Shown piece by piece: positions 1-29,680 of a stretch of 29,838 bases of DNA. Position numbers and translations under genes: made by a program. Under the pieces are notes generated by a model that had not been told where the DNA came from, made no database searches, and was given only the letters and a program-made list of their open reading frames with translations. Each line of letters starts with the position of its first letter. The first letter of the stretch is position 1. Source of the stretch: Nitrospira sp. (GTDB lineage: Bacteria; UBA10199; SBBF01); contig SBBF01000080.1 of NCBI GenBank assembly GCA_005240075.1, forward strand, positions 1 through 29,838, written 5' to 3'.

Positions 1-97
1 ACAACCGTCATGTAAAAAAGAAATCACAAAAACCAGTCCTGTTGCCTGGGGGAATTTGACATGGCCACGACTGGGGGATTTTCAAGTGGCCACCGGG

Positions 98-180
98 GTC
101 ATCCAGCACTTAAAAGCTTTTGAGTGCTGGATAAACCCCCCGTTGGTTCGTTCGGACTGGCAAAGCCAGATCCTCACTCA
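98..180 (+). repeat. Composite hairpin element, copy A: a 32-nt near-perfect palindrome ATCCAGCACTTAAAAGCTTTTGAGTGCTGGAT at 101-132, followed by the family hairpin CTGGCAAAGCCAG at 157-169
   Basis: The palindrome is self-complementary with one mismatch. A near-identical composite recurs in inverted orientation at 14255-14365. The 13-mer is shared with 6350-6362, 6822-6834, 8432-8444 and 14267-14279. Confidence 0.8.
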
Positions 181-226
181 CAATCCATTTCAAAAATAAA
201 GAAAATATTGCCTCAGAGCATTTTTA

Positions 227-535
227 ATGCCATACTTTAATATGGCTAAAGATATTTACTTTGGTTCTTTTGTATGGAACCAAAATAAGGAGGCCATCAA
301 TTTAAAGACACATCGTCTTGATTTTAAAAAGGCCACTGATGCTTTTTTTGATCCCTATCGCATTATTGCAACGGATGAGGTACATAGCGCGGATGAACCC
401 CGATATTTTTGTATTGGCAAGGTTGGAAAAAAAGTAGCTACAGTCAGATTCACTTACCGAGAAAACAAAATTAGAATCATCGGAGCCGGTTTTTGGCGCA
501 AAGGGAGAAAATTTTATGAGAAAAAAAACAATTAA
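227..535 (+). CDS. brnT: BrnT-like toxin (DUF497 family ribonuclease)
   Basis: A 102-aa ORF carrying the DUF497 pattern: FVWNQNKEAINLKTHRLDF, FFDP, DEVHSADEPRYFCIGK and IRIIGAGF(A)RK...FY. It overlaps the downstream partner by 20 nt. Confidence 0.7.
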   Translation: MPYFNMAKDIYFGSFVWNQNKEAINLKTHRLDFKKATDAFFDPYRIIATDEVHSADEPRYFCIGKVGKKVATVRFTYRENKIRIIGAGFWRKGRKFYEKKNN

Positions 536-758
536 ACGGACCGGTTGGCATGACCAACCGGTAGGATCTCTCAAGGAAATAACCGATTTTCTTCCCCCTC
601 CTGATCAGTTGGTAAGGCCGGAAAAAAGCGTAAAAATTACGCTTTCTCTTGATAAAGAAAGCCTCGGTTTTTTTAAAAGGATGGCTAGGGAGCGGGGAAC
701 AAAATATCAGAGAATGATCCGTGCTGTCATCCGTGGCTATGCCGCTCATTATTCGTAA
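516..758 (+). CDS. brnA: BrnA-like antitoxin (CopG/RHH-type, type II TA)
   Basis: An 80-aa ORF. Its C-terminus KITLSLDKESLGFFKRMARERGTKYQRMIRAVIRGY matches the BrnA ...irlded.l.wfK...GYQt.iN..LR.y pattern. It is translationally coupled to brnT. Confidence 0.65.
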   Translation: MRKKTIKRTGWHDQPVGSLKEITDFLPPPDQLVRPEKSVKITLSLDKESLGFFKRMARERGTKYQRMIRAVIRGYAAHYS

Positions 759-1726: not shown

Positions 1727-1825
1727 AAATCCCCTTCCCTTTTTAACCAGATTTTGTAATGTCCCCCCGCAAATGCAAATTTACAGGGTTATCCAATCAT
1801 GAACAAAACAAGAAAGCCCTTGAGC

Positions 1826-1905
1826 GAAGGATCTGGCTTGGCCAGTTCTGAGTTTGGAGGCTCCCTTCATGGGCCGCCGGAGGCGGACCGGAAGGTACAT
1901 AATGG
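1826..1905 (+). repeat. Composite hairpin element, copy H, in the opposite orientation to copies B to F: GAAGGATCTGGCTTGGCCAG...CCCTTCATGG-[GCCGCCGGAGGCGGAC]-CGGAAGGTACATAATG
   Basis: It contains the covarying hairpin CTGGC-TTG-GCCAG (1833-1845) and the CCTTCATGG...CGGAAGG module. It ends with GGAAGGTACATA-ATG (ATG at 1902), 16 nt before the 1918 start. Confidence 0.75.
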
Positions 1906-3539: not shown

Positions 3540-3542
3540 TTA

Positions 3543-3668
3543 TATACCTTCCCGCTTCGCGATGAAGGAAGCCCCCAATCTCAGAACTGGCTACTTGTAC
3601 TTCGCAAAGCCGATGGCTTTGCTACGCGGCCAAGCCAAGCTTGGCCTTGTAGCCAGATTCTTCGTCAT
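3543..3668 (+). repeat. Composite hairpin element, copy B, expanded with nested hairpins, occupying the whole cysW-cysA intergenic spacer
   Basis: ATACCTTCCCGCTTCGCGATGAAGGAAGC...CTGGCTAC[GCAAAGCC-ATC-GGCTTTGC][GGCCAAGC-CAA-GCTTGGCC]GTAGCCAGATTCTTC. Read on the minus strand it ends GGAAGGTATATAA-ATG, the cysA start. Confidence 0.8.
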
Positions 3669-3682
3669 ATGGCATCCGTGTA

Positions 3683-6320: not shown

Positions 6321-6375
6321 TCAGATGGTCCCAAACCCCGTGTTCAGGACTGGCAAAGCCAGATCCTTCACTTAC
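6321..6375 (+). repeat. Partial family element, copy G (module 2 only): ...GTTCAGGACTGGCAAAGCCAGATCCTTCACTTAC
   Basis: Exact 13-mer CTGGCAAAGCCAG at 6350-6362, with flanks matching copy A (AAACCCC..GTTC.GGACTGGCAAAGCCAGATCCTCACTCAC). Confidence 0.75.
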
Positions 6376-6518
6376 TTAATATGCAAAGATGATGCCAAAT
6401 TAGTCGAAATTATATATCTATAAACTATTGAAATTATTAATCTAATTTTAATAAAAAAACAACTACGGGGAATGAATCCCCCATCTTATGCTTATTTTGA
6501 GGCATGAAGACAACATCC

Positions 6519-6597
6519 GATACCTTCCCGCTCGCTTTGCTCGCGATGAAGGAAGCCTCCCATCTCAGAACGGGCCAAGCCCGATTCTTCTCTCGTG
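6519..6597 (+). repeat. Composite hairpin element, copy C
   Basis: GATACCTTCCCGCTCGCTTTGCTCGCGATGAAGGAAGCCTCCCATCTCAGAACGGGCCAAGCCCGATTCTTC. The module-2 hairpin is CGGGC-CAA-GCCCG, a compensatory variant of CTGGC-AAA-GCCAG. Confidence 0.8.
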
Positions 6598-6663
6598 GGC
6601 GGTCGTGTTCTGACTGCTGGCAAGATTATCTTGCCAAAATAAATTAAGTGGATAAGTTGCCTG

Positions 6664-6761
6664 TCAGCCGGGCCCCGTGCAAAGGTATAAATACTCAATC
6701 CCGCCAGATCCGGAAGGAAGCAACGGTAGGTTTTTTTCCTTGTGCCGCGGTCAGCCCGGTG
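6664..6761 (+). ncRNA. ffs: Candidate small SRP RNA (4.5S-type ffs) immediately upstream of dnaX
   Basis: AGAUCCGGAAGGAAGCAACGG at 6707-6726 matches the conserved SRP domain-IV motif GGUCCGGAAGGAAGCAGCC (GGAA tetraloop with an asymmetric AGCA internal loop). The 5' CCGGGC pairs with the 3' GCCCGG, and GUGCAAAGG pairs with CCUUGUGC. The ffs-dnaX-ybaB-recR synteny is known, for example in Bacillus. The ends are approximate. Confidence 0.5.
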
Positions 6762-6768
6762 ATTATTT

Positions 6769-6850
6769 GTATACCTTCCCGCTCACTGCGTTCGCGATGA
6801 AGGAGGCTTCCGGGCTCAAAACTGGCAAAGCCAGATTTTTCGTTCGGTAG
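6769..6850 (+). repeat. Composite hairpin element, copy D, ending 9 nt before the dnaX start
   Basis: TATACCTTCCCGCTCACTGCGTTCGCGATGAAGGAGGCTTCCGGGCTCAAAACTGGCAAAGCCAGATTTTTCGTTCGG, with the exact 13-mer at 6822-6834. Confidence 0.8.
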
Positions 6851-6858
6851 CGACAACT

Positions 6859-8421
6859 ATGCCTTATCAAATTTTTGCCAGAAAATACCGGCCGCAATTG
6901 TTTGACGAAGTGTTGGGACAAGAGGTTGTTGTTCAAACGCTCAAGAACACCATTGAACTCAAAAGGGTTCATCAGGCTTACCTTTTCTGCGGCGCACGAG
7001 GGGTTGGCAAAACATCTCTCGCCCGGATTCTGGCCAAATGCTTAAACTGCGAAAAAGGGGCGACCGTTAACGCTTGCCAGACCTGCCCCTCCTGCAGAGG
7101 AATCACCGACGGCTCTTCGCTGGATGTTTTAGAGATTGACGGCGCTTCCAATACCGGTGTCGATGATGTGCGGGAATTGAGGGAGCAGGTCAAATATCTT
7201 CCCGCAACCGGACAGTATAAAATTTACATCATTGACGAAGTGCACATGCTTTCCACCAGCGCTTTTAACGCGCTTCTTAAAACGCTGGAAGAACCCCCTC
7301 CCCATATTCTTTTTATTTTTGCCACCACCGAACCGCACAAAATTCCGATCACCATTCTTTCCCGCTGCCAGCGATTTGATTTCCGCAGAATGTCTGTCAA
7401 CGAGCTGGTTTCCCATCTTCAAAAAATATTGGAACAGGAAAGATTAAAGTTGGAAACCGAAATTTTAAACCTGATTGCCCGATCGGCCGATGGATCGGTG
7501 AGGGATTCGCTCTCGCTCCTGGATCAGATTATCAGTTTCTGCGGTTCAAACCCTTCCCCGGAGCAGGCGAGGGAATTATTGGGGCTGGCCGATCAAAGTC
7601 TTCTTGCAGACATGATGGATGTTCTTCTCAACTCCGACACAAGCGGAGCACTCAAACTGGCCCAGAGAGCCTATGAGAAGGGATGTGATCTTAAAATATT
7701 CTCGGAAGGGGTGCTGGAATCGCTTCACTCTCTTCTTCTCTTCAGCGAAGGAGGAACACTGGATCTCACCGGCAGTGAAAGGGAGCAGTTTGAGAAATGG
7801 AAAACACAAACCGACACGGGGCGTCTGTTGATTCTTTTTCAGATTTTGGCCCGCGGCATTGAAGAGATGGCACGCAGTGAATTCCCCCGGCTTGTTTTTG
7901 ACACGACTCTCATCAAAATGATCCGATCCAAAGAATATTTGTTGATCCCGGAAATTCTGGAAAAGCTAAATGGGGCGGAAAAGGCCCCGAATCAAGAGAA
8001 TTCAAAAAAAAATGTACCCCCCACCAAACAGGAGAACAGTTTGTGGGGAGAATTTGTGAGAAAAGTGTGTGAATCAAAACCGCAGGTCGGCTCCATTTTG
8101 GAGCATGCCGTGCCGATTCAGATGGCCGAGGGGATGATCAAAGTCGGGTTTGAGCCCAAATCACTTTATGCCGATATGCTCAAAGATCGGATCGAATCAT
8201 TAAAACAAGTAGCCAAAGAATACTTTAAAAAAGAAATTCGTTTTGAGATCGAATCAGTATCGGTGCGTGATAGCCAGGGGGTCACAGCCCTGGAAATGAG
8301 GCAGAGAGAAGAAACCAAAAAAACGGAAGAGACTCGTGCAAGGGCAATGGCCCACCCCATGATTCAAAAAGCCCAGGAAATTTTGGGAGCTGTTGTAAAA
8401 GAAGTAAAAGAAATTAAGTAA
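6859..8421 (+). CDS. dnaX: DNA polymerase III subunit gamma/tau
   Basis: AAA+ clamp-loader motifs GARGVGKTS, the Zn module CxxC...CxxC, DEVHML and SRC. 520 aa. Confidence 0.95.
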   Translation: MPYQIFARKYRPQLFDEVLGQEVVVQTLKNTIELKRVHQAYLFCGARGVGKTSLARILAKCLNCEKGATVNACQTCPSCRGITDGSSLDVLEIDGASNTGVDDVRELREQVKYLPATGQYKIYIIDEVHMLSTSAFNALLKTLEEPPPHILFIFATTEPHKIPITILSRCQRFDFRRMSVNELVSHLQKILEQERLKLETEILNLIARSADGSVRDSLSLLDQIISFCGSNPSPEQARELLGLADQSLLADMMDVLLNSDTSGALKLAQRAYEKGCDLKIFSEGVLESLHSLLLFSEGGTLDLTGSEREQFEKWKTQTDTGRLLILFQILARGIEEMARSEFPRLVFDTTLIKMIRSKEYLLIPEILEKLNGAEKAPNQENSKKNVPPTKQENSLWGEFVRKVCESKPQVGSILEHAVPIQMAEGMIKVGFEPKSLYADMLKDRIESLKQVAKEYFKKEIRFEIESVSVRDSQGVTALEMRQREETKKTEETRARAMAHPMIQKAQEILGAVVKEVKEIK

Positions 8422-8423
8422 AG

Positions 8424-8451
8424 CCTTGCATCTGGCTTTGCCAGTGCAAGG
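8424..8451 (+). terminator. Nested hairpin just after the dnaX stop: CCTTGCA-[CTGGCTTTGCCAG]-TGCAAGG, with no U-tract
   Basis: A perfect 7-bp outer stem encloses the family 13-mer in inverse form (CTGGC-TTT-GCCAG, 8432-8444). It is followed by a CAGGGC...GCCCTG hairpin at about 8484-8512. Confidence 0.5.
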
Positions 8452-8537
8452 CGCGGGGGCATGGGGGGTATCAGCAGGGCAAATTGAAATCAAATGAGCC
8501 CTGCGGGCCCCCCATTGTAAATAACCAAGGAGATCAA

Positions 8538-10079: not shown

Positions 10080-10364
10080 ATGAAAACAATGAGCATCCGG
10101 GTTAGTGATTCGGAATTAAAGCAAATCAGCAAATTGGCCAAAACAACCGGTTTGGACAAATCGGCCGCCGCTCGCGAGCTTTTAAGGGACGGCTGGTTTT
10201 TTTATTGGATACGCCAATACCGGGAAAAGAAGGTTTCACTGGAAAATTTGTCCTCCAATCTCAATCTTTCGCTTTCCGAGACGATTGATCTGCTCTCCGA
10301 GTTGGGTATTGAGGCCCCTATCAGCTACGATGATTATGTTTCCGGTTTTAAATTTTTTGGGTAG
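10080..10364 (+). CDS. Putative antitoxin: RHH-like N-terminus fused to a UPF0175-like C-terminus
   Basis: The N-terminus MSIRVSDSELKQISKLAKTTGLDKSAAARELL is ribbon-helix-helix-like. The C-terminus YREKKVSLENLSSNLNLSLSETIDLLSELGIEAPISYDD matches UPF0175 (yreGkiSlgkaAelagms..ef.dlL.erGIp..yd.ed). It starts 3 nt after the PIN gene. Confidence 0.55.
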   Translation: MKTMSIRVSDSELKQISKLAKTTGLDKSAAARELLRDGWFFYWIRQYREKKVSLENLSSNLNLSLSETIDLLSELGIEAPISYDDYVSGFKFFG

Positions 10365-10412
10365 TAGAAAAAGGATTGGGTATCGCAATACCCTCGGGCT
10401 TGAGTTGAAATA

Positions 10413-11231
10413 TTAAAGGATAAACTGCCGGAAAACTTGTTCATAATTGAGAATCCACTGCTGTTCGGAGGGGTCTTCCAAAAAACGCCCCACATCCTTA
10501 AGGATGTCGGAGGCTCCTGCTTTTTTGACTTGTTGCTCAACAGCTTTCATGACTTGAGGCACATCCTTAAATTTTTTCCCCTTTGTGCCCCGGTTTAAAT
10601 AACTCAAGTTCAGTTCCGTTTTCCGGCTTAAATACCAGATGAGGTCATAATAGTCTCGACCGCGAGAATACGGTCGATGAAGCAGTGCCAAAATTTTTCC
10701 CGCGAACAGGGTGGGGAGGTTGTGTTTTAAGATCGGAAAAATCTCCTGAAAACGGTTGACGAAAAAACTTTCCCGCTCTCCTTTTTTGAGCGGAAGGGGA
10801 TTTACGTCCACTTCCAGTTTTACATGGAGTTTTTGATCCTCCTGGAAGCCCCTGAGGTCAAAGGCCCGTCCAAGGCCGGCAAAACGCAAGAAACCTTTTT
10901 GGACGATTTTGTTTTCCTGAAACGAGGAATCAATGTCAAAACCTCGCAGCTTAAGTTCGCGAGCCAACACATCCATCAGGTTGGCGAACCGGTAAGACTC
11001 TTTTTTGCCGTCCCGGCAGAAATCAAGGTCTTCGGAATAACGCTTGATGCCATGGCAGATGCGCAGGGCCGTTCCCCCCATAAACGACAGGCTCCCCCCA
11101 AAGGGGGACTGAAATACCATCTTGAGCACCAGCGTCTGGAGGTACTCGCGAAGGACATTGAGGACATCCTGATCCGTTGTCGGCAGGTTTCGCCTTCGAA
11201 GTTCTTCAATTATTTTTCTGGCTCTTTCCAT
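10413..11231 (-). CDS. abiEii: AbiEii/AbiGii-family nucleotidyltransferase toxin (type IV TA / abortive infection)
   Basis: Hallmark motif GGTALRICHGIKRYSEDLDF (PF08843-like GGTAL...R.SeDlDf) plus a DUF1814-like C-terminus. It overlaps the upstream abiEi by 26 nt. Confidence 0.75.
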   Translation of the reverse strand: MERARKIIEELRRRNLPTTDQDVLNVLREYLQTLVLKMVFQSPFGGSLSFMGGTALRICHGIKRYSEDLDFCRDGKKESYRFANLMDVLARELKLRGFDIDSSFQENKIVQKGFLRFAGLGRAFDLRGFQEDQKLHVKLEVDVNPLPLKKGERESFFVNRFQEIFPILKHNLPTLFAGKILALLHRPYSRGRDYYDLIWYLSRKTELNLSYLNRGTKGKKFKDVPQVMKAVEQQVKKAGASDILKDVGRFLEDPSEQQWILNYEQVFRQFIL

Positions 11232-11820
11232 AATTTGTTCGGTAATCCAAAAAGGAAGTTAAAAGTCGCCCCACCTTTTCAGGGTATTGCCGGGCATAGA
11301 CTTTAAGTTTCTTCACGTCAAGATCCCCGACATTTTGAAAGCGTTCTTCTCTCCAAAAAAGAGGAGTCGCTTTCAAGTGATGGCGATGGAAGTAGAAATA
11401 ATCCAGAAGAGCCTTCTCCTTTTCGGCCATGAGCGTTTGCGGGTCAAAGCCCCAAAAAAGTTTCTGATGAATCTTGTGATAAAAAAATTCCCCATAGGGG
11501 GTCTGGAACTTCCGGGTAAGTCGGGGGGTGACCAGAGTCATGGAAAAAGGGACATCGGGAATGAACCCATGGGCATGAAGGGCATATTCCAGACTGATAT
11601 AGGAGGGGCCGTACAAGATTTTTGCCACCTCCACTTTGTCCCTGATCCGATCCGGAAAACCATACACCCCTCTTTTGAAGCGGAGCAGCTCCCCCTGCCG
11701 ACACCAGTGGTGAAGCTGGACCTTCAACTGATTCGGGGAGGTTTCCCATCCCACCCGATGGGCCTCCTCCAAGGTAAAACAGGGTTTTTGCATTTTTTTG
11801 ACGAATTCATTAAGTTTCAT
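11206..11820 (-). CDS. abiEi: AbiEi-family antitoxin/transcriptional regulator (N-terminal wHTH)
   Basis: A 204-aa protein with QLHHWCRQGELLRFKRGVYGF, the AbiEi_4 signature l..G.l.ri.rGvY. It lies immediately upstream of, and overlapping, abiEii. Confidence 0.65.
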   Translation of the reverse strand: MKLNEFVKKMQKPCFTLEEAHRVGWETSPNQLKVQLHHWCRQGELLRFKRGVYGFPDRIRDKVEVAKILYGPSYISLEYALHAHGFIPDVPFSMTLVTPRLTRKFQTPYGEFFYHKIHQKLFWGFDPQTLMAEKEKALLDYFYFHRHHLKATPLFWREERFQNVGDLDVKKLKVYARQYPEKVGRLLTSFLDYRTNYGKSQKNN

Positions 11821-11829
11821 TTAATTATA

Positions 11830-11845
11830 TTAAATTATAATTTAA
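11830..11845. promoter_or_regulatory. Perfect 16-nt palindrome TTAAATTATAATTTAA in the abiEi upstream region, a candidate AbiEi autoregulatory operator
   Basis: The sequence is self-complementary and lies 10-25 nt upstream of the abiEi start. AbiEi antitoxins are known to bind inverted repeats in their own promoters. Confidence 0.45.
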
Positions 11846-11908
11846 TAAAATATATAACTCAACTTAAAATAGCGCCCAAGGCAGATCGAAGAAAGACGCG
11901 AATAGTGA

Positions 11909-13413: not shown

Positions 13414-13887
13414 TCAGACTCTCTGAAGCAGGGAGGATACCGATTCTCCCGTTTGAGGATTGACCCAGTCCGGCGCAATTTCGCGAAGCGGCTCCAAAAC
13501 AAAACGGCGCCTCCCGATTTCGGGATGGGGCAAAATCAAATCATCGGTTTTCAAAATCACTGAGCCGTAAAAAAGAAGATCCAGATCAATCACCCGGGAT
13601 TCCCATTTGACGCGACGGACCCTCCCCATTTTTTGTTCAATGCCCAGCAGTTCCCGGAGCAAAACCTCCGGTTCAAGCGCTGTTTCCACAAGACAAACGG
13701 CATTCACATACCAGTCAACAGATTGAAAGTTTTCTTCATGAGGAGGAAGAAGGGGTTCGTTATGATAAAAAGAGGAACAGGCTATCAGCCGGCTTTCTGG
13801 GAGATTTGTCAGAGCTTTCAACGCCTTTTGACACTGGAGAAAAGGATGATCCAGGTTGCTTCCTATGGCAATACCTGCTTGCATCAT
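13414..13887 (-). CDS. folK: 2-amino-4-hydroxy-6-hydroxymethyldihydropteridine pyrophosphokinase (HPPK)
   Basis: IAIGSNL...YHNEP...W.SR.IDLDLL......DL.LPHPE...R.FVL.PL.EI.P. The start codon directly abuts repeat copy E. Confidence 0.85.
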   Translation of the reverse strand: MMQAGIAIGSNLDHPFLQCQKALKALTNLPESRLIACSSFYHNEPLLPPHEENFQSVDWYVNAVCLVETALEPEVLLRELLGIEQKMGRVRRVKWESRVIDLDLLFYGSVILKTDDLILPHPEIGRRRFVLEPLREIAPDWVNPQTGESVSSLLQRV

Positions 13888-13967
13888 ATACCTTCCCGCT
13901 CGGGCTTTGCCCTCGCGATGAAGGGGGCCCTCGAGTTCAGGAGTGGCAAAGCCACATCCTTCATCAT
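13887..13967 (+). repeat. Composite hairpin element, copy E, abutting the folK start codon
   Basis: ATATACCTTCCCGCTCGGGCTTTGCCCTCGCGATGAAGGGGGCCCTCGAGTTCAGGAGTGGCAAAGCCACATCCTTCATC. Inner hairpin GGGC-TTT-GCCC. Module-2 hairpin GTGGC-AAA-GCCAC, a compensatory variant. Confidence 0.8.
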
Positions 13968-14150
13968 CTGGCGCTCGAGCATTCCGGCTTCGTTTATCTT
14001 TTTTGGAATGGGAAGATCAAGAGATTTTTAAAAAACCTGAACATCCCACAAACCGAAGTGATTGCAAAATAAGGGATTTGACGGTAAGAAAACTTGTCTG
14101 AAAGCAGAGTCAAACACGAACCCCCTCGACCGAAGAATCAGGCTTTGCAT

Positions 14151-14234
14151 TGATATACCTTCCCGTCAGCTTTTGGCTGACGATGAAGGGGGCCTCCGAG
14201 ATCAGAACTGGGAGACCCAGATTCTTCTTCCGGG
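14151..14234 (+). repeat. Composite hairpin element, copy F
   Basis: TGATATACCTTCCCGTCAGCTTTTGGCTGACGATGAAGGGGGCCTCCGAGATCAGAACTGGGAGACCCAGATTCTTCTTCC. Inner hairpin CGTCAGC-TTTT-GGCTGACG. Module-2 hairpin CTGGG-AGA-CCCAG, a compensatory variant. Confidence 0.8.
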
Positions 14235-14254
14235 GGCAGTCGAGTATAATGGAT

Positions 14255-14365
14255 GTGAGTGAGGATCTGGCTTTGCCAGTTATGAGTGAGGATCGAATTT
14301 ACTTCGTCCGAGCGAATACCAAGGGGGTTTATCCAGCACTCAAAAGCTTTTGAGTGCTGGATGAA
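14255..14365 (-). repeat. Inverted copy (A') of the composite element seen at 98-180: CTGGCTTTGCCAG hairpin (14267-14279) plus the perfect 32-nt palindrome ATCCAGCACTCAAAAGCTTTTGAGTGCTGGAT (14331-14362)
   Basis: The reverse complement aligns with 98-180 (CATCCAGCACT.AAAAGCTTTTGAGTGCTGGATAAACCCCC...CTGGCAAAGCCAGATCCTCACTCA) with one internal indel. It is followed by GATGAAGGGGGC and a GGGGGC...GCCCCC hairpin before the tRNA. Confidence 0.8.
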
Positions 14366-14397
14366 GGGGGCGCCAGCGGCAAAGCCCCCATTATAAT

Positions 14398-14487
14398 GGA
14401 GAGGTGGCCGAGTGGTCGAAGGCGCCTGACTCGAAATCAGGTATACCTTTACCGGTATCGTGGGTTCGACTCCCACCCTCTCCGCCA
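14398..14487 (+). tRNA. tRNA-Ser (anticodon CGA), type II, with encoded CCA
   Basis: Manual fold: acceptor GGAGAGG/CCTCTCC, anticodon stem CCTGA/TCAGG with loop CTCGAAA, long variable arm, T-arm GTGGG-TTCGACT-CCCAC, 3' GCCA. Confidence 0.85.
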
Positions 14488-14510
14488 AGAAAGAGCTGAT
14501 TTGTCTCATG

Positions 14511-16841
14511 TACAAATTAGTCGCCATCACACTGATGTTGATGGTTGTCTCCTGCCAATCCAAACTGGAGCTATTTCCCATGGAAGATCATCAATCCAAT
14601 CAAACCGGTTTTTCACAGGATGGTCAACTGCCTGGTGCTCAACCCTTTTCGCCGCCTCTCATAAAACAGTTTGAAGATATGAGAAAGATCCGAGGCGATG
14701 AGTACCAACCACGGACCAGACATCTTCGCCCTGACGGTTGGGCCAAATACACCAATCGTCTTTTTCTTGAATCATCTCCCTATCTGCTCCAGCACGCACA
14801 TAATCCGGTCAATTGGCACCCGTGGGGGGATGAGGCATTCGATGCGGCCAAAAAACTGAATCGCCCCGTGCTGGTCAGCATCGGGTATTCGACCTGCCAC
14901 TGGTGTCATGTCATGGAAGAGGAATCTTTTGAGGACGAAGAAATCGCCCAAACCCTGAACGAAAACTACATTGCCATCAAAGTCGATCGGGAAGAGCGCC
15001 CAGATATCGATGCCATCTACATGAGCGCCGTTCAGGCCATGACAGGGGGAGGAGGCTGGCCGATGAATGTCTGGCTAACCCCCGATCGAAAGCCCTATTT
15101 TGGAGGAACCTATTTTCCCCCCCGTGACGGGGATCGCGGAACACGAACCGGATTCTTGACCCTTCTTTTGCGATTGAAAGAAATCTACCAGAGAGAACCT
15201 GAAAAAGTTGTCGATTCATCAAATCAACTGGCCCAGGCAATCAGCGAAAATCTTGTCCAGGAAGAGATAGGGAGCGGGATTCCCGACGCGCAGATTTTTC
15301 ACAAGGTCGTTTCGGTGTACAAAAATCGCTTCGACGAAAAAGAGGGAGGGCTGGACATTACCCCCAAGTTTCCAAGCCAGACACCGATCCGATTCCTGCT
15401 TCGCTATCATCGCCGCACAGGTGACGAGGAAGTTTTAAGAATCGTCATGCACACCTTGAACAAAATGGCCTCCGGTGGAATTTACGATCATGTTGGAGGA
15501 GGTTTCCACCGCTACTCAACAGACACACATTGGCTCGTCCCCCATTTTGAAAAGATGCTCTACGATCATGCCCTGCTGGTGATGACCTATTTGGAAGCCT
15601 GGCAGGCAACCGACAACCCAGACTATGAGCGGATCGTCAAAGAAACCCTTCGGTACATTGAAAGAGATATGACCTCACCTGAGGGGGCTTTTTATTCGGC
15701 CACAGACGCGGATAGCCTTACCCCCAGTGGTCAGCGGGAGGAGGGATACTTTTTCACCTGGACTCCTTCTGAATTAAAAAAGGTTCTTGGCCCCGAAAGA
15801 ATGAGGGTTTTTGAAAAATATTTTATTCTGACAAACGAAGGCAATTTCGAAGGACGACTCATCCTCCATACCCACACAACAACAGCAGAGGTGGCCAAAG
15901 AACTGGGGCTTCCGGCAGAAAAAGTTCAGATTTTGTTGGATGAGTCTAAAAAACTTCTCTGCCAGGAACGAAACAAACGGCCGCCCCCTCTTCGGGATGA
16001 AAAAATACTCGCCTCCTGGAACGGACTAATGATTTCTGCCCATGCCCAGTCGGGACTTGTTTTGAATGATACCCGCTATACAGAGCGAGCCATCAAGGCA
16101 GCCCGGTTTATCTTTGACAAACTTTATACTGAAGGGAGACTCTTTCGGAGTTATAAGGACGGCAAAGCCAGGCACAACGCCTATCTGGATGACTATGCTT
16201 TTTTAACGGCTGGGCTTTTGGATCTTTATGAAGCAACAACGGACCCGCAATGGCTCAAAAGAGCGATCGAATTGGATAAAACGCTGGAAAAATTTTACGA
16301 GGATAAAAAGAATGGCGGTTTTTTTATGACCAGTTCCGATCATGAAAAACTCCTGGCACGGGAAAAGCCAAATTACGATGGCGCTGAGCCCTCTGGAAAT
16401 TCCATTGTTCTTCTGAATCTCTATCGATTGAATGAATTCACTTCCGATGACAGCTATCGCGAACGTGCCGACAAGACGTTGAAAGCCTTCTCTCAGACCC
16501 TGAATTCCCGTCCGAATTCCCTGACAGAAATGCTCATCGCTCTTGATTTCCGCCTCGACAAGCCCCAAGAGATTGTCATCGTGACTCCTGTGGGAAAAAA
16601 GAGTGATGCCGACATGTTTCTTGCCGAATTCAGAAAGAAATATCTTCCCAACAAAATTCTGGTTGTTTCGGAAGAAGGAGATGACCTTCAAAGACAGGCC
16701 GAAATGATTCCTGTAATCAGATCAAAGATGGCCCAGAATGGGAAAACCACCGCCTATGTTTGTGAAAAAGGTGTGTGTCAATTGCCAACGAGCGATCCGG
16801 CAACATTTGCCAAACAAATCAGCACAACTGAGAAATTGTGA
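14511..16841 (+). CDS. yyaL: Thioredoxin-domain protein of the YyaL/DUF255 family (SSP411-like), predicted lipoprotein
   Basis: Lipobox MLMVVSC. DUF255 core [29 protein letters not shown]...[14 protein letters not shown]...[12 protein letters not shown], then GGGWP...YFPP and a C-terminal six-hairpin glycosidase-like region. The track ORF N-terminus (14460-14510) runs through the tRNA. Confidence 0.8.
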
Positions 16842-17000
16842 AGTGCCCCGGGCTTGCACCGGGGGGGGGTCCGGTGAACTTCACCAAGCCCGGAGGGCAT
16901 TGAGGGGGAGGCAACTATCTTACTTCGCAAACCTAACAGTTTGCTACGCGCCGCGAATGAATCGCGGCTTGTATCCGGCTTCACCGGTGGAGGGGGCAAC
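16842..17000 (+). repeat. GC-rich multi-hairpin segment after yyaL that shares the TACTTCGCAAA...TTTGCTACGCG module with copy B
   Basis: CCCGGGCTTG[CACCGG-GGGGGGT-CCGGTG]AACTTCACCAAGCCCGG. CTTACTTCGCAAAC-CTAACA-GTTTGCTACGCG, to be compared with copy B ACTTCGCAAAGCC-GAT-GGCTTTGCTACGCG. GCCGCGA-ATGAA-TCGCGGC. Long-range CCGGTGAA / TTCACCGG. Confidence 0.6.
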
Positions 17001-19467: not shown

Positions 19468-20046
19468 ATGTCCCCAAGAAAGTCTGAAACATCCCTGTTT
19501 GAAAAAGCAGTGCGGAAAGTGATCGGATTTTTGGAAGAACAAAAAATTCCCTACTTTGTCCTGGGGGGTCTTGCCGTGGGGGTCATGGGTGAGCCCCGCT
19601 TTACACGCGACATCGATCTCGACATATTTCTCAATACTGATGAAACAGGTCTTCTTTTGAAAAGGCTTAAACAGGCGGGGTTCACATTCAAAGCTAAAGA
19701 GGCCATGGTCACAGCTACCCAATTCGGCACCTTTCGAATATTTTATAAAACGGTTCAAATTGATATGATTATGGCTTCCACTGATCTGGAAAAAGAAGCT
19801 CTGAAAAGAAAAAAACGAGTTTCTTTTTTTAACCAGAAAACATCATTCCCGTCCGCAGAAGATCTGATTCTTCTCAAGTTGATTCCCGGAAGGCCCAAGG
19901 ACCTGCTGGATGCCGAATCAATCATAATCAGACAAAAAGACAAACTCGATCTGTCTTATCTTGAAAAATGGTCTCGTCAAATTTGCGAACTCTCCGAGGA
20001 CTTTCGGGTGATCAATCAATTAAAGAAAATGCTTGAGAAAAACTAG
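19468..20046 (+). CDS. Pol-beta superfamily minimal nucleotidyltransferase (MNT-like, DUF6036-like C-terminus)
   Basis: YFVLGGLAVGVMGEPRFTRDIDLDI has the hG[GS]-x9-13-DhD nucleotidyltransferase signature. The C-terminal LILLKLIPGRPKDLLDAESII motif is shared with the 28100-28591 protein. Confidence 0.55.
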   Translation: MSPRKSETSLFEKAVRKVIGFLEEQKIPYFVLGGLAVGVMGEPRFTRDIDLDIFLNTDETGLLLKRLKQAGFTFKAKEAMVTATQFGTFRIFYKTVQIDMIMASTDLEKEALKRKKRVSFFNQKTSFPSAEDLILLKLIPGRPKDLLDAESIIIRQKDKLDLSYLEKWSRQICELSEDFRVINQLKKMLEKN

Positions 20047-23389: not shown

Positions 23390-23899
23390 ATGATCATGGG
23401 GTTGGGACAGTCACAAAAATCAGGTCAGTCAGATCGAACCCAATTTGGAGGATCTTTTGGTACGGGAGGAGGGCTGGATACTCTTTTCAGTTCACTGGAT
23501 GCATCGGTGGCCGAAAATCTGGTGATTCTGATTTCCGGTGAGTTTGGGCGTCAGCTGAGCGCGAATGGGGATGGGGGGACAGATCATGGAAGAGGAAACA
23601 GTATGTTGGTGATTGGAGATCCTGTTGTCGGTGGTCTTTACGGCGATCTTTTTCCTGAAAGTGAGCTAGCCCGTTTTGATGAACCGAGTAGTGATATTGA
23701 AGGGCTGACCTCCATGGAACATGTTTTTGGGGCTGTTTGGGGCTGTTTGGGGCTGTTTGTGACTGGATGCAAGCCGGGGCTGGCAGTGTCGTGTTTCCCA
23801 ACCGGTCGGGTGCTGATTTGGAGGAAGGGGTCAGTCTGGAAGGATTGTTGGTTTAAGATTCCCACTCATTTCTTTTTGCCCGCTTCGTTGATCATTTGA
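23390..23899 (+). pseudogene. Truncated fragment of a DUF1501-family gene (C-terminal about 100 aa only), carrying a tandem 11-nt repeat
   Basis: NLVILISGEFGRQLSANGDGGTDHGRGNSMLVIGDPVVGGLYGDLFPE matches the DUF1501 C-terminal signature (l.v..gEFGRtp.....GRDH......l.aGggv.gG.vyG.td). Full-length members are over 400 aa. TTTGGGGCTGT occurs 3 times in tandem at 23726-23758. The 3' end overlaps hemH by 34 nt. Confidence 0.5.
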
Positions 23900-24891
23900 C
23901 AAACCGCTTCAACCCACAGAGGGTTTTCATTCAGGGAGGGAATCAGTTCCAGATGTTCTCCCCCCCTTTTTAAAAAAGAGTCTCTCCCTCGAATCCCTAT
24001 CTCCTCAAGAGTTTCCAGACAATCAGCCACAAACGAAGGACAAAAAACAGCGAGCCATTTGATCCCTTTTTTTGGAAATTCAGTCAGCAAAATATCCGTA
24101 TAAGGTTTGATCCAGGGGGTTCTCCCCAATCGCGATTGAAAGGAGATGGTAAATTGCTTTTCAGTCAACCCCAGTTCTTTGGCAATCAGTTTGGCGGTTT
24201 GAAAACAGTGGGCCCGATAACAAGCCTGGTTGGCGATCTCCATTTTTTCGCAACAATCCCTCACCTGCAAACACCAGGAGCCTGTCTTGTCCAGTTTGGT
24301 TAAATGTCTTTCAGGAAGACCATGAAAGCTGAACAGAACATGATCCGGATTCATGCGATTGATCACCTCCTTTCCCTGTTCGACCCATGCCCGGATAAAA
24401 GAGGGATGATCATAAAAAGGAGGGATGACTTTCAGCGGGGGAACCAGTTTTATTTTTTCAATCACCCGAAACAGTTCGGTCAAACTTGATTCGGTGCTGG
24501 ATGAGGCATACTGGGGGTAGAGGGGAAAAATTCGCAATTCATCGACTGATTTCGAAAGAATTTTTTTTAACCCCTCTTCAATTGAGGGACTTCCATAACG
24601 CATTCCTATCTCTACCGCATAATTTTCTCCCAATTGACTCGCCACTGTTTTGGCTAAGGCTTCTGTGTGAATAATAAGAGGCGAGCCTTGGTCGCCCCAG
24701 ATTTTCTGATAAGCAGCCGCCGATTTTCGGGGACGGAAGGGGAGAATAAACAGATTCAACAATAACCAGCGGGCCAGCGGATGGATGTCGATCACCAGCG
24801 GATCGGACAAGAATTGCCTTAAGAATTTCCGGACAGCCGGCACGGTGGGAGCTTTCGGACTTCCGAGATTGATTAAAAGAATACCCGTCAT
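23866..24891 (-). CDS. hemH: Ferrochelatase
   Basis: MTGILLINLGSPKAPTVPAVRKFLRQFLSDPLVIDI... is the canonical HemH N-terminus. 341 aa. Confidence 0.9.
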   Translation of the reverse strand: MTGILLINLGSPKAPTVPAVRKFLRQFLSDPLVIDIHPLARWLLLNLFILPFRPRKSAAAYQKIWGDQGSPLIIHTEALAKTVASQLGENYAVEIGMRYGSPSIEEGLKKILSKSVDELRIFPLYPQYASSSTESSLTELFRVIEKIKLVPPLKVIPPFYDHPSFIRAWVEQGKEVINRMNPDHVLFSFHGLPERHLTKLDKTGSWCLQVRDCCEKMEIANQACYRAHCFQTAKLIAKELGLTEKQFTISFQSRLGRTPWIKPYTDILLTEFPKKGIKWLAVFCPSFVADCLETLEEIGIRGRDSFLKRGGEHLELIPSLNENPLWVEAVCQMINEAGKKK

Positions 24892-24918: not shown

Positions 24919-25131
24919 CTAGGCGGCCTTTTGGAAGTCTAACATCAAACCTTTATCGGCACATGCCTGCAGATAAAAATTGATCAGATTTTGATAAGGA
25001 ATGCCTGTGCGAAAGGCCATCTTTTTAAAATAGTCAAGGGTAGTCTTATCCAACCTGATCGTGATTTGTCTTTTAAGACGACGTGCGTAGGGATTTTTAA
25101 CCGATTTTGAAAAATCGTATTCTTTTCTCAT
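24919..25131 (-). CDS. brnA: BrnA-like antitoxin (second copy)
   Basis: RQITIRLDKTTLDYFKKMAFRTGIPYQNLINFYLQACA matches the BrnA pattern. It overlaps brnT by 4 nt. Confidence 0.7.
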   Translation of the reverse strand: MRKEYDFSKSVKNPYARRLKRQITIRLDKTTLDYFKKMAFRTGIPYQNLINFYLQACADKGLMLDFQKAA

Positions 25132-25430
25132 GATAGATGCTCCTGGTAAATACGAATCTCCTTTTTTACAGCCTTTCTTGCAGAAATGATTCGTATAACC
25201 GATTCATTTTTACGATAGCAATGGTTAACAACCAATAGACGGAATTTTACGCTCATACCGAGAAGAACATAACGATCTTCTTTCCACGAATGATCCGGAT
25301 CTGCAATGAGTCTGGCACACGGATCAATGAAAACCGTTTTTGCTTCTTCAAAAGAGATGCCATGCTTTTTAAGGTTTAACCGGCTCTTCAAACCACTCCA
25401 TTCGAAGTCAAGGTCAGTTTCCTCAGGCAT
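25128..25430 (-). CDS. brnT: BrnT-like toxin (DUF497, second copy)
   Basis: FEWSGLKSRLNLKKHGISFEEAKTVFIDP....DPDHSWKEDRYVLLGMS...LLVVNHCYR.....IRIISARKA...E...Y is the canonical DUF497 pattern. Confidence 0.75.
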   Translation of the reverse strand: MPEETDLDFEWSGLKSRLNLKKHGISFEEAKTVFIDPCARLIADPDHSWKEDRYVLLGMSVKFRLLVVNHCYRKNESVIRIISARKAVKKEIRIYQEHLS

Positions 25431-27354: not shown

Positions 27355-28110
27355 TCAAAATGGACGGGGTTGAGGTGCGGAATTACCTGCAAACAGGTTT
27401 AACAAAACCTTAAGAAAGGGATAAGGGACCTGAAAAATTCTCTCAGCTCCTACTTTCGTAACTTTGCCCAGGCCGATTTTGCAGAGTGCCATGAGTTCGG
27501 AATAAACGGGCTGATAACTTTGACCGAGGGCAAAAGAGATTTCGAGGGCATTTCCCTCTTTGTTTTTTATAAAATAGCTGAAAATCTCCGCACGCGTCCC
27601 AGCCCCAAAAAGGGCCCTCAGAGCCAAGTTGGGATTATTTCTTAAAACGTAGGGTTTCTCAAGAATAGCTTCCCCCATAGTACTCATTTCCCGAGAGATT
27701 AAATTCCAACGTTTCCAAACGGACAAACATTCTTCCTGGTTCAATTCTGATTCTGTTGGAGATCTTCCAATTCTTCTGAAAAGGAATTCGGGCTTATTCA
27801 ATTTCCGACAATATCTTCGAACGGCCTTTAAAACAGAGCGTGGATTAATCTCAATAACAGAATCGATGACTGCCCCCAACACCGCTGTCTGCTTTTCCTG
27901 TCGGACAAAACGAATGAGCCTGCTTCCATTGACAAGGTCATGGTGTTTTAACAGCCACCCTCGCATCCCAAAAAGCAGACGTGAATCGTCGCGACCCGCT
28001 TGCGATGTTTCAACAAGGATCTTTTCCAAATCAACAAGGTCCTCCACGGAAAATGACTGATCGAAAGCCACTCCCAGCCGGGTCCATAGAGTGTATAAGT
28101 CACTCAACAA
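27355..28110 (-). CDS. Hypothetical 251-aa protein: a possible HEPN-like N-region (RGWLLKH = R-x5-H) with a C-terminal winged-helix. Candidate partner of the upstream nucleotidyltransferase
   Basis: It overlaps the upstream NTase gene by 11 nt, suggesting an operon. The C-terminal LALRALFGAGTRAEIFSYFIKNKEGNALEISFALGQSYQPVYSELMALCKIGL resembles a wHTH. FGMRGWLLKHHDL fits the HEPN Rx4-6H motif. The assignment is inferential. Confidence 0.45.
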   Translation of the reverse strand: MLSDLYTLWTRLGVAFDQSFSVEDLVDLEKILVETSQAGRDDSRLLFGMRGWLLKHHDLVNGSRLIRFVRQEKQTAVLGAVIDSVIEINPRSVLKAVRRYCRKLNKPEFLFRRIGRSPTESELNQEECLSVWKRWNLISREMSTMGEAILEKPYVLRNNPNLALRALFGAGTRAEIFSYFIKNKEGNALEISFALGQSYQPVYSELMALCKIGLGKVTKVGAERIFQVPYPFLKVLLNLFAGNSAPQPRPF

Positions 28111-28591
28111 GGTTCCATTCCTCCAATCGAAGTTTTATATGGAGCGCCGTTTTTGGATCGAATCTGGAAATCCGCTCCAGATTTTTCATGATAATGGCCG
28201 TGTCTTTTTTACCGATCTCCAAAAATTGAATATCTGCCAAATCTCTTTCCCTGGCCGCTTTCAGTTTTAACATCAAAAGATCGGGTTTTCCCAAAGAGCT
28301 TATTTTCAGATTCTTCAATCCAAGCTTCAGCGGTATCAGCCTTTCTGTCCAGCCTTCCGGCAAGTAACTGGCATAGCCTTTACAAGAATCATTGAGCCAC
28401 TCGGTTGAAAGTCCTTCTTCCAGCGCAATCTTCTTTACTTTTTCTCGCAAGGACTCTGAAAGAGGAACGGGTGCGATGACATCGACATCCTGGGTTTGCC
28501 TTTTCCCTTTAAATGCCAGGGCCACAGCCATACCGCCGCAAATAATCAGAGTTTCCTTCTTTTCCAGTTCCGAATTCAATCTCCCAAGCAA
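28100..28591 (-). CDS. Pol-beta superfamily minimal nucleotidyltransferase (MNT-like)
   Basis: LIICGGMAVALAFKGKRQTQDVDVI has the GG...DxD nucleotidyltransferase motif. C-terminal LLMLKLKAARERDLADI is similar to the 19468 protein. The start appears to be a TTG, and no good SD is visible. Confidence 0.55.
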   Translation of the reverse strand: MLGRLNSELEKKETLIICGGMAVALAFKGKRQTQDVDVIAPVPLSESLREKVKKIALEEGLSTEWLNDSCKGYASYLPEGWTERLIPLKLGLKNLKISSLGKPDLLMLKLKAARERDLADIQFLEIGKKDTAIIMKNLERISRFDPKTALHIKLRLEEWNLVE

Positions 28592-28643
28592 TGCGATGAG
28601 ATCCAGGGGTGTCTCCTTTCTCTCAAAGAAATATAATCCAAGT

Positions 28644-28658
28644 TATTGCATTATGCAA
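28644..28658. promoter_or_regulatory. 15-nt palindrome ATTGCATTATGCAAT about 55 nt upstream of the NTase operon start: candidate operator
   Basis: Perfect inverted repeat ATTGCAT-T-ATGCAAT next to a TATAAT-like sequence, in the leader of a TA-like operon. Confidence 0.4.
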
Positions 28659-28961
28659 TAGTTATTTTCTCCAGACAAGATTGAAGTCTTGAATGTCATC
28701 GCCGGCTTCAATTCAATTTTTGATCTCTGCCGCGGATGGGGATAGGCGCCGTAGAGCATGATGCCGGGTCGAACCCATCCATGACCGGAAAGATTCCGGT
28801 CAATAATGGCAGACGAATTGGCGAAGGGACAATGTCATTTTTTAAATCAAGCAAAAATTCAATTTCGGATTAATGATAAATATTAAATAAATTCAATAGT
28901 TTAATAATTTTTACAACTAAAATTTAATTATTTTTTATTTTATCAATCATTATTTTTAATT

Positions 28962-29396
28962 CTAAATTAAAGATTCTGGCAACACGATAAACCCTTCTTG
29001 CATGGCCGCTTCCCGAAGGCGTGTATCCAAACATACAAAGGCATGATTCTTGGGAAAGCCTTGTGCCCAGAGAAGAGCGGCAGCCAATTGGAGTGAATCA
29101 GCGGCTCTCAAGGGATGCAACAAAAGAAGCCTGCCCACCTGATCCCGAATCATTTGACTGGGAAGAATTTCGGTCCAATTTTGGGCCAAAAGATCTACAA
29201 GATGACGAACCATCCGTTCCTGATCAGTTGTTAATACGGCCTCCCGCCTTAAACGAGCAAAAGCCGAATCACACTCGGTCACGGAATTCCACCAAACAAC
29301 AATGGAAGAATCATCTTCAAGAATTTTTTTCACAAGAGGGGTGTTGGATTCTTCACAACAAAGCGGTATGAGGGCGGAGGAATCCCAAAATTTCAC
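28962..29396 (-). CDS. vapC: PIN-domain ribonuclease toxin (VapC-like)
   Basis: MKFWDSSALIPL (first acidic residue), ...ADSLQLAAALLWAQGFPKNHAFVCLDTRLREAA (distal Asp), 144 aa. It overlaps the upstream antitoxin by 4 nt. Confidence 0.7.
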   Translation of the reverse strand: MKFWDSSALIPLCCEESNTPLVKKILEDDSSIVVWWNSVTECDSAFARLRREAVLTTDQERMVRHLVDLLAQNWTEILPSQMIRDQVGRLLLLHPLRAADSLQLAAALLWAQGFPKNHAFVCLDTRLREAAMQEGFIVLPESLI

Positions 29397-29680
29397 CGTT
29401 GGTTCCTCTCTTCCATCAAGGCTGCCATGGCCAGCCCCCTCGGATCAACAGGATGCGGAAGGGACCAAAAAGATGCCGGCACTTTTCCCGAACCAAGCCG
29501 GACAAGCCCTTCTTGAACCATTTCTTTTAAATAAGGGGAGATAGCTGATGGAGAGATAAAAGGAATAATGCGGGCTACCGGTTGACCACGGTCGGTTACA
29601 ATCACTTCTTCCCCTTTTTTAACATGCTGGAGGTGACTGCTTAAACGCGCTTTCAGTTTTGATATGGTTGTGCTTTTCAT
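29393..29680 (-). CDS. Phd/YefM-family antitoxin
   Basis: MKSTTISKLKARLSSHLQHVKKGEEVIVTDRGQPVARIIP is the classic Phd/YefM N-terminus. It is translationally coupled to vapC. Confidence 0.7.
   Translation of the reverse strand: MKSTTISKLKARLSSHLQHVKKGEEVIVTDRGQPVARIIPFISPSAISPYLKEMVQEGLVRLGSGKVPASFWSLPHPVDPRGLAMAALMEERNQR

Follow-up and report, generated by a model that had tools for sequence, protein, structure and literature searches.

Repetitive extragenic palindromes and bacterial interspersed mosaic elements (REP/BIME) of enterobacteria and pseudomonads are short hairpin modules which are arranged in variable extragenic mosaics and in either orientation, and their stems are kept by compensatory change. 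They are often intercistronic or lie by gene ends, as at the 3' ends of operons, and they have roles in mRNA stabilisation, in processing or in the binding of architectural proteins. Miniature inverted-repeat transposable elements (MITEs), such as Correia/NEMIS, ERIC, RUP and others, are non-coding, gene-adjacent repeats of 100-150 nt which form long hairpins when transcribed, and some bacterial MITEs are substrates of RNase III and change the expression of the neighbouring gene. In the present study, a 29,838-nt contig of Nitrospira sp. (SBBF01000080.1; "the window" denotes this whole stretch) has been analysed for a 32-nt palindrome which is present twice, as copy A at 101-132 and as copy A' at 14331-14362, and for the longer repeat in which it is embedded, named here the P unit and known from these two copies within the 29.8-kb window. 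With a confidence a little short of even, the palindrome is taken here for a lineage-specific module, the large hairpin, within an intergenic repeat which is mosaic and REP/BIME-like and would act through its structure.

The P unit resembles both groups and departs from both. It shares with the MITEs the size, the gene-adjacent position and the long hairpin, but MITEs are defined by inverted repeats at their two termini and by a target duplication that is always the same (TA in the case of Correia), whereas the ends of the P unit are not inverted repeats and only one copy shows a flank duplication. In common with REP/BIME it is extragenic and built as a mosaic of short hairpin modules combined with other motifs and in both orientations; on the other hand, the elements described here face gene starts rather than operon 3' ends. 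Moreover, the palindrome is perfect, its stem is longer than that of a typical REP, no REP-associated tyrosine transposase (RAYT) is encoded in the window and the GTAG-type head is absent, as neither GTAG nor GTGG stands at the base of either stem, be it that of the palindrome (GGGGTC|ATCC, CCCTTC|ATCC) or that of the small hairpin next to it (TCGGA|CTGGC).

The preliminary description of this DNA had reported a perfect 32-nt palindrome and a one-mismatch copy, and the sequence bears this out, with 31 of 32 positions identical between A and A' and the single difference at position 111. Its claim that the palindrome is far beyond chance also holds: with up to three mismatches allowed, the 32-mer was matched twice within the window and never in 100 shuffles, the longest palindrome in 200 first-order Markov simulations had a mean of 15.3 nt and never exceeded 26 nt, and the next-longest perfect palindrome of the window is 20 nt. 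The stem of 14 bp is lengthened at copy A by GGGGT/ACCCC at 95-99 and 135-139, a 5-bp extension which gives 19 bp in total, and the RNA fold of 40-240 has a z-score of -3.8. In copy A, T111 stands opposite G122 and would form a G-U wobble if the plus strand is the RNA. The palindromes are flanked by AAACCCC and GAAGGGG. The two copies are inverted to each other at a separation of 14,148 nt, with matching arms of 59 nt (86%) and 27 nt (100%). Avoidance of the HindIII site was rejected as an explanation, as AAGCTT is not under-represented in the window (13 sites vs about 8 expected).

Homology between the two loci extends well past the palindrome. In BLAST, 72-183 aligned to the opposite strand of 14280-14390 with 78% identity across 115 nt (E=2.6e-18), and 156-189 aligned to 14248-14280 with 97%. 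The P unit measures about 115 nt at A and about 140 nt at A'. The composite of 98-180 proposed earlier is thus a real repeat which had been drawn too short, the homologous regions being about 72-189 and 14248-14390. The unit consists, in order, of one or two 25-nt units, the palindrome, a linker (AAACCCCC..TCGG), one or two small bulged hairpins (GGA-CTGGC-AAA-GCCAG-A-TCC) and a tail, ATCCTCACTCA. Conservation along it is a mosaic, as 19 of 33 positions agree in the left flank (69-100 against the reverse complement of 14363-14394, a weak homology of the 25-nt unit beside palindrome A), 20 of 25 in the linker and 27 of 27 in the hairpin with its tail, and about 50% past the tail. The 25-nt units at A were found by Tandem Repeats Finder with a period of 25, 1.9 copies and 82% matches. 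It was also observed that the first of these units contains TTGACA and that the GGCCAC/GTGGCC ends of the repeat are able to form a hairpin.

In the hairpin-plus-tail module, which has the sequence ACTGGCAAAGCCAGATCCTCACTCACA, GGA/TCC forms a lower stem with a bulged A, CTGGC-AAA-GCCAG forms the upper stem and ATCCTCACTCACA is the tail. The CTGGCAAAGCCAG hairpin lies at 157-169 on the plus strand, 24 nt right of palindrome A, and at 14267-14279 on the minus strand, 51 nt left of A', in agreement with the earlier statements that each palindrome is joined to a small hairpin and that the two composites lie in opposite orientations. It is present at both palindromes but is not specific to them, since with up to two mismatches it occurs eight times in the window vs 0.9 expected. 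At A', the segment 14281-14307 is a tandem duplicate of the hairpin-plus-tail unit and accounts for the 27 extra nucleotides of this copy. Its upper stem is CGAA/TTCG in place of CTGGC/GCCAG, three pairs being altered on both sides with the pairing kept (predicted hairpin GGACGAA...UUCGAUCC).

The small hairpin connects the P unit to a second family of structured repeats of about 90 nt, named here the E family and defined by repeat finding, alignment and an 89-position covariance model, R1. The family has the consensus ATATACCTTCCCG - variable hairpin 1 - CGATGAAGGrGCC - ... - CAGAACTGGCAAAGCCAGATTCTTCGTCA - GGGC or, by segments, ATATACCTTCCCG - hairpin 1 - CGATGAAGG - ... - hairpin 2 - ATTCTTCGTCA. 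Six full copies are present in the window (R1 E<=5e-15), all of them within its first 14.3 kb. Compensatory changes were seen at nine of the 20 consensus pairs, and the stem variants CGGGC/GCCCG, GTGGC/GCCAC and CTGGG/CCCAG all retain pairing; together with the compensatory stem changes in the duplicated hairpin of A', these variants point to selection acting on the structure. Most E copies place their 'a' end (of the a/b/c pairing scheme given below) 0-25 nt from the start of a gene or tRNA on the opposite strand, examples being an ABC ATPase (3539) and folK (13887) in the window, nusB in locus L062 and tRNA-Arg in L025 and L032. The ATATACCTTCCCG end, when read on the strand of the neighbouring gene, is GGGAAGGTATATAAT, which resembles a ribosome-binding site.

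R1 copies were found in unrelated metagenome contigs from several projects (L015, L025/L050, L032, L034, L047, L052 and L062). A scan of JGI metagenomes with the signature ATACCTTCCCG-N5-25-CGATGAAGG gave mostly chance matches in coding DNA, plus genuine E copies which share hairpin 2 and the tail and are conserved nearly base for base between metagenomes. No family of Rfam 15 matches the E or P elements, the best E being about 1 in 1-260 and 13860-14400, and over the window only the signal recognition particle (SRP) RNA and two tRNAs pass. About 87 kb of sequence from the nearest relatives, which were identified through a 777-aa protein of the window, contained no member of the E family.

The P units hold the 3' half of an E element (positions about 42-81, with hairpin 2, its GGA/TCC lower stem and bulged A, and the pyrimidine tail). 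R1 aligned 154-173 of copy A to model positions 52-71 (E=0.017) and 14253-14292 (-) of copy A' to positions 42-81 (E=0.18), the match of either unit being confined to the second-hairpin region of the 89-position model. BLAST tied the hairpin module of the P unit to 6342-6375 (91%), 1821-1846 and 13935-13960. The 5' half of E (ATACCTTCCCG - hairpin 1 - CGATGAAGG) is absent from the P units, which have the 25-nt unit, the palindrome and the linker instead, and the palindrome occupies the site where hairpin 1 of E would be. Other contigs with E copies gave no match to the palindrome.

A further likeness lies in alternative pairing. In the consensus fold of E, the invariant segment GATGAAGG pairs with the upstream CCTTC, and it can alternatively pair with the downstream tail, as 64 of 72 cells are compatible vs at most 45 of 72 in slid registers. 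In this b-c helix of the E family, 14 G-U were counted vs 3 A-C, mostly at two inherited positions, and for this reason the strand inference from these pairs has not been relied on. In the P unit, the tail ATCCTCACTCA is a near-copy of a palindrome arm (ATCCAGCACTCA), and the hairpin-proximal arm can pair in silico either with the other arm or with this tail. When the distal arm was removed, the predicted fold was a helix between proximal arm and tail, UGAGUG/CACUCA, with GGAU/AUCC in addition at A'; among 300 arm-shuffled controls for each copy, 19 for A and 2 for A' equalled or bettered this fold. The motif ATCC-N1-2-CACTYA occurs eight times in the window, always inside the P units or the P-like partial copy at 6363-6374.

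Taken as a whole, these comparisons speak against a palindrome that arose by chance and support a repeated intergenic element which forms structure. In the mechanism proposed for it, the P unit would be transcribed in the leader or intergenic RNA of the gene which its palindrome side faces, namely tRNA-Ser at A' and, at A, a feature beyond the left edge of the window. A very stable hairpin of 14-19 bp would then form part of the transcript and may influence its processing or stability or serve as an insulator, and the proximal arm may switch to the downstream tail, mirroring the a/b/c arrangement of E. The units may have spread by duplication, by recombination between repeats or by an unseen transposase. 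At A', the palindrome side abuts the tRNA gene through ...ATTATAAT|GGAGAGG, an E-like orientation towards a gene start, and this junction recalls GGTATATAATA|tRNA-Arg in L025. In case of copy A, the side corresponding to the 'a' side of E runs off the window, where only a weak minus-strand ATG at 11-9, lacking a ribosome-binding site, is seen.

Several points weigh against the structural repeat reading. Only two copies are available, from which the boundaries, copy number and mobility cannot be fixed, and the palindrome is absent from the GTDB, JGI and viral scans, so that no comparison of its conservation is possible. All pairs of the palindrome are Watson-Crick and hence the strand cannot be called, and the T111-G122 wobble favours the plus strand at A, opposite to the leader orientation expected by analogy with E. 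The arm-tail helix was noticed post hoc and is far weaker than the palindrome hairpin, the full fold reaching -41.5 kcal/mol and the partial fold about -21. At least one E copy, that at 6769-6856, breaks the orientation rule: it adjoins the SRP RNA at the 3' terminus of the latter and points its tail at dnaX. Near-perfect modules beside diverged linkers would also fit protein recognition or gene conversion.

A more far-reaching proposal, which we consider rather unlikely, is that P and E together represent an undescribed class of cis-acting structured RNA placed directly in front of the starts of protein and tRNA genes in a Desulfobacterota-like lineage without cultured members, with a toggling middle segment controlling downstream processing or translation. 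The segments a, b and c of such a toggle are proposed to be CCTTC, GATGAAGG and TCTTCGTC in E, and arm, arm and ATCCTCACTCA in P, and the palindrome would then be a lineage-specific re-invention of the switch with a new sequence.

A first alternative, unlikely but with several observations in its favour, is that the P unit is mobile but non-autonomous, a small element like a MITE or like REP/RAYT, which would have transposed into both sites and whose palindrome would be recognised by an enzyme encoded elsewhere in the genome. A 9-nt direct repeat, TATAATGGA, flanks A' (14245-14253 and 14392-14400), and excision of the A' unit with one repeat would leave TATAAT directly before tRNA-Ser, the arrangement also seen as TATAATA|tRNA-Arg in L025. 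Copy A carries three and A' four occurrences of the half-site-like motif ATCC-N1-2-CACTCA, in the manner of the binding-site arrays of transposases, the modules are conserved at the sequence level, and contigs of the Logan collection break at the repeats. This possible target-site duplication has no counterpart at A, and at A' part of it belongs to the unit, since AATGGAT precedes TGTGAGTGAGG in both copies. The suggestion in the preliminary description that the palindrome is a terminal inverted repeat is not supported: the palindrome is internal, and the ends of the unit, TGGGGG... at about 72 and ...CTCACTCACAATCC at about 189, are not inverted copies of each other. Nor do the two copies bound a transposon as a pair, because the 14 kb between them is housekeeping DNA. 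Further, the window encodes neither a transposase nor a RAYT nor an integrase, the REP head is lacking as stated above, and no other copy was met with in 596 Gb of GTDB genomes, in JGI metagenomes or in IMG/VR. A further reading is that the palindrome is a double-stranded DNA operator for a dimeric regulator, in favour of which its identity of 31/32 stands against about 58-80% in the flanks. The nearest look-alike is CIRCE (controlling inverted repeat of chaperone expression), the heat-shock operator of HrcA, with the consensus TTAGCACTC-N9-GAGTGCTAA and, in Desulfovibrio vulgaris, a groESL site cTgGCACTC-N9-GAGTGCcAA; the delta-proteobacterial sites in Table 8 of the same work all have N9 and lie at -49 to -81 (PMC545781). 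CIRCE is likewise intergenic and has the same core, AGCACTC...GAGTGCT corresponding to its arms, and copy A lies about 90-120 nt from the possible minus-strand ATG at 11-9. The arms CCAGCACTC and GAGTGCTGG agree with CIRCE at 7 of 9 positions each, the left arm of copy A ending in T and not C. But the spacer is 10 nt (AAAAGCTTTT) and not 9, and a perfect palindrome of even length cannot have an odd spacer; the outer arm bases are CC/GG instead of TT/AA; the palindrome is embedded in a longer repeat with no chaperone gene adjacent, and groES, groEL, dnaK, grpE, hrcA and rpoH are all missing from the window; A' has a tRNA gene on one side and a run of repeats on the other; and arms of this type (ATCCAGCACT-N12-AGTGCTGGAT) were met in GTDB as eight hairpins in unrelated phyla and in none of the Desulfobacterota relatives. 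An operator of BrnA was rejected, as no palindrome of this kind precedes the second brnTA pair (24919-25430). An operator function is therefore judged quite unlikely.

Three further readings are less probable still. A factor-independent, bidirectional terminator or insulator, duplicated incidentally, would fit the very stable hairpin with its stem of 14 bp (19 bp at A), the position of both copies between transcription units and a plus-strand frame which may end at TAA 13-15, upstream of A. It is made very unlikely by the lack of a T/U tract after the stem on either strand, a terminator scan being empty at both palindromes, by the lack of an upstream gene at A' which would need termination on either strand, and by the 115 nt of flanking homology, which are not expected of independent terminators. 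The inverted arrangement of the copies, 14,148 nt apart and with the arms given above, could allow the 14.2-kb segment between them to invert, whether by homologous or by site-specific recombination; this is highly improbable, as the window encodes no invertase or recombinase, essential genes lie on the segment in either orientation, tracts of identity of at most 32 nt are short for RecA-dependent exchange and nothing supports an alternative arrangement. An assembly artefact such as a fold-back chimera can hardly be credited. Palindromes do confuse de Bruijn assemblers, and Logan contigs stop beside both copies, but the copies differ by one base and have only partly homologous flanks, the self-complementarity ends at 32 nt and does not run into the flanks, and the Logan contigs reproduce the flanks exactly. 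The mosaic structural repeat is retained as the preferred reading.

The searches beyond the window covered 596 Gb of GTDB genomes, JGI metagenomes and IMG/VR, the source genome itself being outside these collections, and none of the three scans gave a further copy of the palindrome. The eight GTDB loci with matching arms are regarded as unrelated long hairpins, because their loops differ and their phyla are unrelated. The exact palindrome with two free positions had no match in the JGI metagenomes, and in the viral contigs of IMG/VR neither the palindrome nor the hairpin plus tail was found. A string search of the literature returned nothing for the palindrome core and, for the hairpin string, one irrelevant paper, where it is probably a primer. 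In two contigs of metagenome-assembled genomes (L005 3180-3211 and L006 7394-7425; one belongs to Candidatus Harrisonbacteria), 32-nt hairpins are found which have the 14-nt arms ATCCAGCACTACAC...GTGTAGTGCTGGAT in common and lie among runs of other hairpins; their outer 10 nt equal the palindrome and the centre differs, and they are probably unrelated to it.

An exact-protein look-up of BrnT and of the 777-aa thioredoxin-domain protein led only to independent Logan contigs of the same organism, of 1.7 kb and 2.6 kb, from SRR6943130, and the products of dnaX, folK and transaldolase were not on record. The first contig (L009) equals 156-1873 of the window, beginning where A and A' diverge and ending within another E copy, and the second (L010) equals 14370-16968, beginning 8 nt past palindrome A'; both match the palindrome-flanking sequence exactly. 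Such breaks beside repeats are as expected of multi-copy, palindromic or sample-heterogeneous sequence and are suggestive only. For comparison with an empty site, the contigs of five homologues of the 777-aa protein (68-79% identity) were examined; none has folK or tRNA-Ser upstream, and they are not syntenic and contain no E or P element.

The positions of the modules and of the genes next to them are collected in the table below.

Table. Positions of the palindromes, the modules of the two P units, the E copies and the adjacent genes in the window
Feature	Position	Strand	Remarks
Two tandem 25-nt units (CTGGGGGAaTTTgACAtGGCCACga)	46-93	+	directly left of palindrome A
Palindrome, copy A	101-132	none	as A' except T for C at 111
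Linker of copy A (AAACCCCCCGTTGGTTCGTTCGG)	133-155	+	20 of 25 aligned columns as in A'; two 2-nt indels
Small hairpin and tail of copy A	156-182	+	27/27 identical to 14254-14280 on opposite strand
brnT	227-535	+	Pfam BrnT_toxin E=6.8e-21; on tail side of copy A
brnA	516-758		Pfam BrnA_antitoxin E=5e-5; after brnT
Full E copy	1811-1900	-	R1
Full E copy	3542-3678	+	R1
Partial E copy	6338-6376		
Full E copy	6518-6605		R1
Full E copy	6769-6856		R1
Partial E copy	8418-8473		
Full E copy	13886-13977		R1
Full E copy	14153-14242		R1
Partial E copies	inside both P units		
9-nt direct repeat TATAATGGA, left copy	14245-14253	+	at end of E element 14153-14242
Small hairpin and tail of copy A'	14254-14280	-	identical to 156-182
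Second, diverged hairpin-plus-tail unit (ACGAAGTAAATTCGATCCTCACTCATA)	14281-14307	-	27-nt gap in A/A' alignment
Linker of copy A' (AAACCCCCTTGGTATTCGCTCGG)	14308-14330	-	aligned with copy A
Palindrome, copy A' (ATCCAGCACTCAAAAGCTTTTGAGTGCTGGAT)	14331-14362	none	self-complementary across all 32 nt
Hairpin-forming stretch GAAGGGGGCGCCAGCGGCAAAGCCCCCATTATAAT (GGGGGC...GCCCCC)	14363-14397	+	homologous to 25-nt unit at A
9-nt direct repeat TATAATGGA, right copy	14392-14400	+	overlaps first 3 nt of tRNA-Ser
tRNA-Ser(CGA)	14398-14487	+	ARAGORN; Rfam tRNA 62.8 bits; faced by palindrome side of A'

The gene calls agree with the earlier placement of A upstream of brnT and of A' upstream of tRNA-Ser. The 14 kb between the copies contain an arfB-like gene, RNase T, an ABC transporter, tRNA-Ser, SRP RNA, dnaX-ybaB-recR, transaldolase and folK. 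A promoter was rejected at copy A, where no sigma-70-like site is present, and also at A', where the sole site is on the minus strand, uses the palindromic ATTATAAT and has its -35 inside the tRNA gene. The stretch 14363-14397 ends in TATAAT flush against the 5' end of tRNA-Ser, which is too close for this to be the -10 of that gene. A reading frame is open through both P units (2-197 on the plus strand and 14138-14581 on the minus strand), with the shared peptide ..IQH[L/S]KAFECWINP..WQSQILTH.. and the 27-nt indel in frame. The coding reading was rejected, as there is no Pfam match and no database protein and the frame at A' is antisense to the tRNA; compensating frameshifts between the two linkers also oppose it, and both frames are judged to be spurious.

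Some E copies have features of their own. At 3542-3678, between the genes for the ABC permease and the ATPase, the E copy contains an insert of about 60 nt in the loop of hairpin 2 (window 3576-3650) with further hairpins, GCAAAGCC/GGCTTTGC, and the palindrome CCAAGCTTGG around AAGCTT; comparable inserted hairpins, including CTGGCCTTAAGGCAG-like sequence, are seen in L052 and in the second copy of L062, and the E family seems to accumulate nested hairpins. The SRP RNA gene (6666-6764, Rfam 67.6 bits) has E copies in the same orientation on either side, the downstream one beginning one base past the SRP RNA and stopping 3 nt before dnaX.

Elsewhere in the window, a perfect, A+T-rich palindrome of 20 nt, TATTAAATTATAATTTAATA, lies at 11828-11847 between the divergent genes abiEi (start 11820, minus strand) and a Ras-like GTPase (11922), and is plausible as a promoter or operator for the AbiE toxin-antitoxin pair. 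Toxin-antitoxin and nucleotidyltransferase modules are unusually dense among the housekeeping genes (227-758, 10080-11820, 19468-20046, 24919-25430 and 28100-29680). They comprise two brnT/brnA pairs, abiEi/abiEii, a ribbon-helix-helix (RHH) protein, DUF6036 nucleotidyltransferases and a Phd/YefM antitoxin, which adjoins a weak PIN-like open reading frame (Pfam PIN E=0.087). A second tRNA-Ser(CGA) called by ARAGORN at 24512-24596 is probably a false positive, because it lies within the ferrochelatase reading frame (23866-24891, minus strand, Pfam E=1.7e-102) and is absent from the Rfam results.

Taken alone, the palindromes are a further example of hairpin-rich mosaic repeats, and they would account for the breaks of short-read assemblies of this organism at these points. 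The E family, which is absent from Rfam, is the more interesting by-product of the palindrome analysis and would represent a new RNA, should its function be regulatory or in processing. If this proves to be true, the P units would show how such an element diversifies, with the hairpin module swapped and the pairing scheme kept.

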